DNA of 64,000 nucleotides, taken from NCBI RefSeq assembly GCF_006345805.1, contig NC_043015.1:43896001-43960000 (forward strand), read 5' to 3'. Position numbers and translations under genes: made by a program. Source of the stretch: Octopus sinensis (Eukaryota). Of this stretch, positions 48,679 to 50,995 are shown one piece after another (within the stretch, counting starts at the first letter, position 1; the number at the start of each line of letters is the position of its first letter). The notes beneath the pieces were generated by a model. It had not been told where the DNA came from. It did not search any database and saw nothing but the letters and a program-made list of their open reading frames with translations.

Positions 48679-50995
48679 ATTAACAATTAAGGAACGGCCA
48701 TAATAGGCCATCACCCACTAGAAATAACAGCCAAAGCTTCTACCGCAAATAAAGATCAATTCCGTAAACAGGAGAAAATTAAAAAAAAAATTTACCCTGT
48801 AATTTCTTGTACGGTATACCGTTCATCCGCTGTTTAATGGTAAACTAACCTGATTAAATTAAATCAAGCCAATCTTCCATAAGCCCTCGGATTCTTCAGC
48901 AAGAAATAGCTCAAGTCGGAACAGATATTTACACGAGGCATACCCAATCTTGCCAAGTCAATATCTGACCTAAAATTTTCAAATCGTCGCACTCGCGCAA
49001 ATTTATCGGCAGCAAATAAATATCAGCCGTCGATTCCATTACGGAATTAACCAAAAAAATTCATAATTAATCAATATAGGGTGGCAAGGAAAATTTTGTA
49101 GAATTTTATTGCCACCAGCGGCCCAGTGGGAAAAAATTAAATAGTCATAGACCATTTTAAGTTCAACATTAACAATTAAGGAACGGCCATAATAGGCCAT
49201 TCACCCACTAGAAATAACAGCCAAAGCTTCTACCGCAAATAAAGATCAATTCCGTAAACAGGAGAAAATTAAAAAAAACATTTACCCTGTAATTTCTTGT
49301 ACGGTATACCGTTTCATCCGCTGTTTAATGGTAAACTAACCTGATTAAATTAAATCAAGCCAATCTCCATAAGCCCTCGAATTCTTCAGCAAGAAATAGC
49401 TCAAGTCGGAACAGATATTTACACGAGGCATACCCAATCTTGCCAAGTCAATATCTGACCTAAAATTTTCAAATCGTCGCACTCGCGCCAAATTTATCGG
49501 CAGCAAATAAATATCAGCGGTCGATTCCATTACGGAATTAACCAAAAAATCATAATAATCAATATAGGGTGGCAAGGAAAATTTTGTAGAATTTTATTGC
49601 CAACAGCGGCCCAGTGGGAAAAAATTAAATAGTCATAGACCATTTTTAAGTTCAACATTAACAATAAGGAACGGCCATAATAGGCCATTCACCCACTAGA
49701 AATAACAGCCAAAGCTTCTACCGCAAATAAAGATCAATTCCGTAACAGGAGAAAATTAAAAAAACATTACAGGGTAAATGTTTTTTTAATTTTTTCCTGT
49801 TTACGGAATTGATCTTTATTTGCGGTAGAAGCTTTGGCTGTTATTTCTAGTGGGTGAATGGCCTATTATGGCCGTTCCTTAATTGGTAATGTTGAACTTA
49901 AAAATGGTCTATGACTATTTAAATTTTTTCCCACTGGGCCGCTGGTGGCAATAAAATTCTACAAAATTTTCCTTGCCCACCCTATATTGATTATTATGAA
50001 TTTTTTGGTAATTCCGTAATGGAATCGACGGCTGATATTTATTTGCTGCCGATAAATTTGGCGCGAGTGCGACGATTTGAAAATTTTAGGTCAGATATTG
50101 ACTTGGCAAGATTGGGTATGCCTCGTGTAAATATCTGTTCCGACTTGAGCTATTTCTTGCTGAAGAATTCGAGGGGCTATGGAAGATTGGCTGATTTATT
50201 TAATCAGGTTAGTTTACCATTAAACAGCGGATGATGAAACGGTATACCGTACAAGAAATTACAGGGTAAATGTTTTTTTAATTTTCTCCTGTTTACGGAA
50301 TTGATCTTTATTTGCGGTAGAAGCTTTGGCTGTTATTTCTAGTGGGTGAATGGCCTATTATGGCCGTTCCTTAATTGTTAATGTTGAACTTAAAAATGGT
50401 CTATGACTATTTAATTTTTCCCACTGGGCCGCTGGTGGCAATAAAATTCTACAAAATTTTCCTTGCCACCCTATATTGATTAATTATGAATTTTTTGGTT
50501 AATTCCGTAATGGAATCGACGGCTGATATTTATTTTATTGCTGCCGATAAATTGGGCGCGAGTGCGACGATTTGAAAATTTTAGGTCAGATATTGACTTG
50601 GCAAGATTGGGTATGCCTCGTGTAAATATCTGTTCCGACTTGAGCTATTTCTTGTGAAGAATTCGAGGGCTTATGGAAGATTGGCTTGATTTAATTAATC
50701 AGGTTAGTTTACCATTAAACAGCGGATGAAACGGTATACCGTACAAGAAATTACAGGGTAAATGTTTTTTTAATTTTCTCCTGTTTACGGAATTGATTCT
50801 TTATTTGCGGCAGGTTAGAGGTAGAAGCTTTGGCTGTTATTTCTAGTGGGTGAATGGCCTATTATGGCCGTTCCTTAATTGTTAATGTTGAACTTAAAAA
50901 TGGTCTATGACTATTTAATTTTTCCCACTGGGCCGCTGGTGGCAATAAAATTCTACAAAATTTTCCTTGCCACCCTATATGATTTAATTATGAAT
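48679..50995. mobile_element. Retrozyme-like tandem array 2: diverged subfamily of the same ~490-bp unit, ~4.7 copies, internal inversion
   Basis: ATTAACAAT..GGAACGGCC recurs at ~48679, 49168 and 49657. Flip at ~49767. Clearly homologous to array 1 with fixed differences. Four hammerhead motifs; flanked by (TA)n. Confidence 0.85.
49292..49397 (-). ncRNA. Type I hammerhead ribozyme motif (representative of array 2)
   Basis: Minus strand reads ATTTCTTG-CTGAAGA-ATTCG..CGGAT-GAA-ACGGTATACCGT-A^CAAGAAAT. Other copies at 48802-48907 (-), 50152-50259 (+) and 50647-50751 (+). Confidence 0.88.

Follow-up and report, generated by a model that had tools for sequence, protein, structure and literature searches.

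Inner ends of head-to-head hammerhead arrays in Octopus sinensis cluster just downstream of the predicted ribozyme cut

Do the inner ends of inverted tandem arrays record the place where an RNA was cut by its own ribozyme? The question is raised by a locus of Octopus sinensis in which two arms of a repeat meet head-to-head a few nucleotides past a predicted hammerhead cleavage site. Here, the window is the whole 64-kb stretch of DNA that was analysed, and u denotes a position in the 491-nt unit, given as the number of bases counted after the predicted GTA^ cut. Arrays of the array-2 type are termed subfamily B, and those of the array-1 type subfamily A (clades A1 and A2).

Two arrays and a predicted ribozyme

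The window contains two arrays with a unit period of 485–492 nt, at 8905–13839 and 48679–50995. Each is composed of a minus-strand arm and a plus-strand arm, and each lies between (TA)n tracts. In array 2, the left arm (48679–49768, minus strand) holds 2.23 units of subfamily B and has its outer 3′ end at u131, while the right arm (49766–50995, plus strand) holds 2.49 units and ends at u237–240; the (TA)n target flanks the array at 48503–48677 and 50994–51068. The arms have ATT in common at the inversion junction (49766–49768), where the letters within 49740–49800 read ...AAAAAAAC-ATT-ACAGGG.... The left arm (minus strand) stops at u+17 and the right arm begins at u+7. These exact ends bear out the original prediction that both arms of array 2 start just 3′ of GTA^ and are joined through an ATT microhomology. 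In array 1, the left arm (8905–10215, minus strand) comprises 2.68 units of clade A1, with its outer end at u132 and its inner end near u+290 to +297. The right arm (10212–13839, plus strand) comprises 7.4 units, with its outer end at u234 and (TA)n target following at 13836–14029; TTT at 10212–10215 is common to both arms. The inner end of this right arm, anticipated about 27 nt after the site, was found at u+25 to +28. Our recount agrees that three of the four inner ends lie within ∼30 nt of the cut in a unit of ∼490 nt, which gives P = 0.0009 if they are taken as four independent draws. The two array-2 ends are probably a single event, and the chance of at least one end in +1 to +30 in both window arrays, which allows for non-independent ends, is 0.014.

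Other repeats lie close by. By eye, the minus strand at 46000–47700 resembles a degraded non-LTR reverse transcriptase. A presumably SINE-like repeat is present in two inverted copies, at 51170–51640 and 52100–52490, and also adjoins array 1 at 14030–14200.

The minimum-energy fold of 50148–50268 is a type I hammerhead (z −2.1) with an 8-bp helix I, a core, a long helix II and a palindromic helix III. The motif spans 50152–50259 on the plus strand, helix I being formed by 50152–50159 with 50252–50259 and the core lying at 50160, and this first right-arm ribozyme is predicted to be active and to cut after 50251. Downstream of the cut in the folded RNA, helix I spans +1 to +8 and a hairpin spans +10 to +41. 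The second right-arm copy (50645–50751, plus strand; predicted cut after 50743) is short of one core base, reflecting either mutation or assembly error, and the copy in the left arm (49292–49397, minus strand) has its predicted cut at 49300. Four of 17 pairs differ on both sides between the subfamilies (6 sequences from two related subfamilies), and these compensatory changes fall in helices I and II. Helix III is a perfect palindrome in B and imperfect in A. A search of the unit against Rfam gave nothing at the gathering score and weak hairpin matches only. Because the minimum-energy fold is a hammerhead and some of its pairs co-vary between subfamilies, the predicted position of the cut is well founded. 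In the account given in PMC4209133, metazoan type I hammerheads that work as dimers are built like this one.

Inner ends across the genome

The element is a 491-nt repeat (period 489–492 nt) inserted head-to-head into (TA)n, and each insertion has two fixed outer ends, one at u131–134 and one near u237, both against (TA)n. The arms of inverted arrays are always joined at their 5′ ends and point outward from the central junction. A second arm is present in 81 of the 100 B arrays anchored at u131; all 81 end at u232–249, with an A/T repeat beyond the end in 78. Likewise, 48 of 51 second arms in subfamily A end at u232–249. Recurrent minor variants are common to both arms in 290 of 316 cases (B) and 162 of 188 cases (A), the corresponding value between arrays being about 0.10 (0.107), and units within an array are mostly uniform (141 vs 25 sites). 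For 21 of 81 B arrays and 17 of 48 A arrays, the extents of the arms are such that neither could lie within the other, which rules out fold-back as a general route. Unit-specific variants mirrored between arms were seen in a few cases (L093, L099), too few when set against assembly error.

Several other features of the arrays were observed. In some arms of L050, L063 and L127, variants follow an alternating pattern that repeats every two units, which could reflect dimer circles or local duplication. Three identical insertions (L197–L199; C1:81885637, 82128040 and 82151639) are probably a local duplication. Long A1 arrays (L066–L103) have many inner ends at about u170–230, with arms often just over one unit in length, and L073, L075 and L081 have an almost identical junction.

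We mapped inner ends in 167 arrays of the same assembly (2.72 Gb), excluding those of the window. Loci were picked by their outer end alone: for B, the first 100 of 152 exact matches, and for A, the first 69 of 458 matches minus two duplicates. Arms were modelled as walks beginning at the arm start, which takes account of short arms. L037, L061 and L063 (beyond the first 100 B matches), L198 and L199 (duplicates of L197), arms of 25 nt or less, and ends cut off by the locus edge were left out, and nine short A loci were swapped for longer cuts of the same places. Earlier sets found by full-unit matches (L031–L103) could favour ends near the query start and hence were kept out of the main test unless they also appeared in the end-anchored lists.

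In the pooled data, 71 of 294 inner ends lie in +1 to +30, compared to 15 in −29 to 0 and 18 in +31 to +60, intervals that account for 6.9%, 6.4% and 7.5% of the exposure, respectively. For the 100 B arrays, the count in +1 to +30 is 51 of 179 ends (hazard ratio 5.4, P = 1.5e-18). Junctions are therefore distributed non-uniformly across the monomer, the opposite of the outcome that the original prediction had named as its refutation. The B edge at the cut is sharp, with 24 ends in +1 to +10 versus 1 in −9 to 0. The excess is present in each arm type (25/99 and 26/80) and remains after a full unit has been passed (16/82 and 16/54). Forty-one B arrays have at least one end in +1 to +30, compared to 7 and 9 for the flanking 30-nt intervals, and when one end per B array was drawn at random, at least 19 of 99 fell in +1 to +30 over 2000 draws. 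The next-best 30-nt interval shows 2.2 stops per 1000 nt, versus 4.8. Within the cluster there are two peaks, +1 to +10 and +20 to +29, both A/T-rich; their rates (7.1 and 5.9 stops per 1000 nt) can be compared to 0.4–1.7 in eight other A/T-rich stretches. Per pass, the B stop rate is 12, 17, 16 and 21% at ribozymes 1–4 and 8% later, over a background of 2–3.5%. About 13% of B passes stop at the cluster (51/378), and ends outside it make up 72% of the B total. The majority of clustered ends fall 4–29 nt short of the cut, and only 4 of the 51 in B, from 3 loci, lie exactly at +1, one of them ambiguous via helix I complementarity. At near-cut junctions of L106, L125, L153, L176 and L208, we noted short A/T inserts, either repeated or untemplated, of the kind that several rounds of re-priming at an RNA end would leave.

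Clade A1 has 12 of 40 ends in +1 to +30 (ratio 5.9), and A2 (43 arrays) has 8 of 74 (ratio 1.5, P = 0.17). Past the first ribozyme, the excess in pooled A is not significant (4/53 and 2/28). We considered the quality of helix II as a natural experiment on catalysis. Its closing pair is mismatched in A1 wherever both bases are covered (17 of 23 arrays) and mostly canonical in A2, which is more diverged and shorter; the A1/A2 pattern is the opposite of a simple catalytic link, and this approach was set aside.

Both inner ends fall in +1 to +35 in 11 of 81 two-arm B arrays, and in 10 of these 11 the arms have an equal unit count (2.6 expected). The corresponding figure for A is 6 of 7 (3.4 expected, P = 0.056). 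In 4 of the 11 B arrays, the u131 arm extends beyond the u237 arm, an arrangement that fold-back cannot make. Co-terminal arms were found away from the ribozyme too (17 of 81 B arrays, vs 2.7 in shuffles), and hence shared arm ends are not ribozyme-specific. Counting all positions, the two arms of an array end at unit positions no more than 12 nt apart in 24 of 81 B arrays and 15 of 48 A arrays, mostly off the ribozyme (L104–L183, L184–L253). Candidate sources of co-terminal arms are shared broken RNA ends, enzyme collision and fold-back.

Joins at the cut and shortened units

When +1 to +21 was searched for as a pattern not preceded by its usual upstream base, 38 B-type and 91 A-type rows came back. 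At five loci the cut site is joined to an internal position, four of them consisting of tandem shortened units. The largest, G000:C13:24734458-24739731 (L314–L326), is a 5.3-kb head-to-head array with a unit of +1 to 296 and at least 15 junctions, in both arms. It has normal termini and no ribozyme. Its 296|+1 junction, ambiguous by one base, occurs at no other locus and is near-constant, with 17 of 20 counted alike; the array is apparently a satellite born in one insertion. A locus on C17 (L311) contains two turns of a +1 to 401 unit (401|+1 twice), and one on C4 (L139) has 353|+1 in both arms. Pattern matches alone define the other two repeated cases: on C24 and on C1, the same junction occurs twice, 318 and 442 nt apart, respectively, both spacings agreeing with the unit positions, and the C1 join is ambiguous by three bases. 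A control search at one position, which misses clade A2, gave 31 rows and no short-period pair. Clean joins exactly on the fold-predicted bond are found at L284, L139, L311 and C24, with L105 as a fifth.

Because the C13 unit starts at the cut, lacks a ribozyme and has a near-constant junction, it is most simply explained by a cut 5′ end that was ligated to a broken 3′ end and then copied as a circle. Same-direction joins were also observed off the cut, in L214 (443|196, twice), L216 (304|58) and L121, and therefore shortened templates form elsewhere too.

The remaining rows scatter around the cut. Among the 91 A-type rows, judged by eye, about 18 ends lie 3–10 nt past the cut versus about 13 at −2 to +1. 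The first 30 of the 38 B-type rows include 7 events no more than 2 nt from the cut and 6 events at least 5 nt past it, and of those six, five have a helix III of the imperfect A type. Post hoc, this hints that a slower ribozyme gives a less sharp edge at the cut.

Templates, relatives and the retrozyme cycle

What do the ends in +1 to +30 represent? We consider it probable that they are mostly trimmed run-off from cut linear multimers, copied by a borrowed Penelope-type reverse transcriptase. Non-uniform junctions, the sharp B edge, the excess at the second to fourth ribozymes and the equal arm unit counts all fit with run-off, and run-off is favoured over copying of a monomer circle because, after one turn, the enzyme would be meeting template that is by then base-paired to cDNA. 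In this scheme, the enzyme would nick both (TA)n strands and prime a pair of cDNAs, each from its own fixed site on a single RNA. If that RNA is a linear multimer whose 5′ end was made by the cut, the two cDNAs would run toward that end, lose 0–30 nt and then be joined through short A/T matches, giving the peaks at +1 to +10 and +20 to +29. Where the cut 5′ end was instead ligated to a broken internal 3′ end, a small circle would be copied repeatedly, giving shortened units that restart at +1. Full-length circles would probably feed long uniform arrays by the same route, uniform units fitting circles as well as young linear donors.

The main alternative is that the reverse transcriptase stalls on uncut RNA at the folded hammerhead, such that the cluster reflects structure rather than cutting. 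The largest B peak (+4 to +8) falls on the edge of helix I, A-type arms frequently run past the cut and stop within helix III, and the excess does not track helix II quality; furthermore, uncut RNA is the main substrate in the experiments of PMC11167929 considered here. However, stalling leaves the five restart loci unexplained. The +20 to +29 peak lies in a predicted loop and not at the base of a stem, and the longer helix II stem shows only 1.7 stops per 1000 nt. Nor would independent stalls give equal arm unit counts, unless the second enzyme collides with the first. On balance, we regard stalling as an unlikely source of the cluster as a whole.

A less probable alternative is that all arrays derive from full-length or nicked circles, with ends near +1 arising when the RNA cuts itself during copying or when the enzyme fails to jump a nick. 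Units are uniform within arrays, the stop rate per pass is roughly constant, the mini-unit arrays show circle copying, and the published model as set out in PMC7229834 is circle-templated. Internal junctions, however, are clean in 303 of 350 B copies, about 3 showing extra bases at the cut by eye, and no nick-jump scars were seen at internal junctions among the 350 copies. Equal unit counts in both arms better fit one shared linear end, and even this alternative requires cleavage in vivo.

We consider it quite improbable that an RNA 5′ end near +1 arises from another cause, for example from transcription that starts internally or from cleavage by a host nuclease. The ends do spread over 30 nt. 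Against this stand the clean joins on the exact fold-predicted bond, and ligation into circles, which suits a 5′-OH end. Finally, chance, A/T microhomology bias, locus selection or assembly artefact can be dismissed almost entirely: microhomology potential is about twice average at +1 to +10 and +21 to +30 and the assembly has many small indels, but a microhomology-weighted null predicts 10.5 B ends where 51 were seen, loci were selected by outer end only, no identical junctions or flanks were left in the set, and the arms are unequal with distinct fixed ends.

Trimmed run-off is our preferred source of the clustered ends, in a narrower form than first proposed. The original prediction held that reverse transcriptase ran off cleaved linear multimers. 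This stands with respect to the clustering, the sharp B edge and the equal unit counts; it is limited by the small fraction of passes that stop, the distance of most ends from the cut, the lack of a significant excess in A2 and the A-type arms that extend past the cut. Cut RNA was apparently also ligated into circles, as indicated at five loci, and linear multimers are thus not the sole template. The further suggestion of a genomic footprint of cleavage in vivo is backed by the clustering and the restart loci, although stalling at the folded ribozyme may give part of the signal. Based mainly on those loci, which provide indirect genomic support, cleavage in vivo at the predicted bond seems likely. 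The inserted ends likely record RNA self-cutting, and sometimes small-circle closure, before DNA copying.

For the two-arm structure, we infer twin priming on one RNA. In L1 twin priming, two cDNAs primed on one RNA are joined head-to-head by microhomology. The arrays differ from L1 in that their second priming site has a fixed position and their arms overlap on the same template rather than splitting it. The architecture matches a Penelope enzyme with both-strand nicking at A/T and two internal start sites on the RNA, as described in PMC11167929, and the inverted 5′ copies of Penelope-like element (PLE) insertions described in PMC8557442.

The element acts as a non-LTR retrozyme and, on testable features, is one, rather than an autonomous PLE. 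It is a short tandem repeat with a predicted type I hammerhead in each unit, and it is non-coding (stop-free frames across array 2 reach at most 103 aa) with a GC content of 0.35–0.38 (<50%). No LTR-type structure was seen in the arrays, and array 2 carries no long ORF of the kind that encodes a Penelope-like reverse transcriptase with GIY-YIG nuclease. The inverted 5′-truncated arm, fixed 3′ ends and microsatellite target are features of a non-autonomous PLE derivative. A search for an autonomous partner of related sequence in 30 of 150 scored GIY-YIG loci produced nothing better than E = 0.62. Such loci, L260 and L261 among them, are abundant in the assembly (5029 candidates) and have long frames, and at L257:2612–2690 a similarly built hammerhead, unrelated in sequence to the 491-nt unit, lies downstream of a nuclease. 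Among the records listed as containing the unit there were contigs only and no RNA; contigs of four runs guessed to be RNA cover the unit, and contigs do not show RNA ends.

Animal non-LTR retrozymes, as portrayed in the sections of PMC7229834 and of Li et al. 2026 (10.64898/2026.07.22.740005) drawn on here, are similarly non-coding, low-GC tandem repeats with one type I hammerhead per unit, for which cutting, circularisation and copying by a PLE enzyme have been proposed. Retrozymes form linear and circular monomers in vivo, and RtcB ligates monomers in vitro (PMC7229834). In those sections, circle insertion is a hypothesis and junctions are not mapped on the cut, and the words 'inverted' and 'rolling' occur 0 times in the covered text of PMC7229834. 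The junctions described here, in contrast, implicate two kinds of template, cut linear multimers as well as shortened circles. EN+ PLEs, in the portions of PMC8557442 and PMC11167929 consulted, share with the arrays an inverted 5′-truncated copy at the 5′ end, partial tandems, (TA)n or A/T targets, two internal reverse transcription starts and both-strand nicking. The arrays differ from them in having no ORF, in fixed 3′ ends ∼105 nt apart rather than a 30–40 nt tail, and in that each two-arm array uses one of each fixed 3′ end. For the anole element, PMC11167929 describes a hammerhead that is dispensable in vitro, with no reads ending at its cut among the results covered. The nearest precedent for our logic is R2, in which the cut site of an HDV-like ribozyme predicts genomic 5′ junctions; if the cut falls at the element's 5′ end, these junctions vary and are believed to rely on chance microhomologies (PMC3774820, in the part considered). 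R2 differs in being autonomous, in inserting specifically into 28S rDNA and in having each transcript cut once, whereas here a hammerhead is present in every unit and is passed uncut ∼85% of the time. A partial search of main texts found no mapping of PLE or retrozyme insertion ends on a hammerhead cut, and hence no precedent for such mapping of a hammerhead element; the linear templates and mini-circle loci are added by these data.

Taken jointly, the data suggest a cycle of germ-line hammerhead cutting, ligation into circles (including ribozyme-less mini-circles of 296–443 nt) and two-headed rolling-circle copying by a Penelope enzyme, a combination whose prospects we judge to be evenly poised. 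The one in vitro study of the hammerhead in PLEs describes it as dispensable (PMC11167929), and the copying of retrozyme circles into the genome is a hypothesis in PMC7229834. Mapping inner junctions against the cut provides a cheap test for any genome with such arrays. In the present case the signal is strong, above all in subfamily B, and the junctions yield an estimate that the ribozyme is already cut on the template in about one pass of seven. For arrays of the C13 type, a covalent circle that begins at the cut appears to be required. The mapping also provides the inverted arms that typify Penelope-like elements with a concrete origin. If the joint reading is true, the mini-circle arrays would be the first genomic proof of circles as an insertion template, as well as cases of the one-step birth of new, shorter satellites. 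The genome would then be a direct record of the whole retrozyme cycle.
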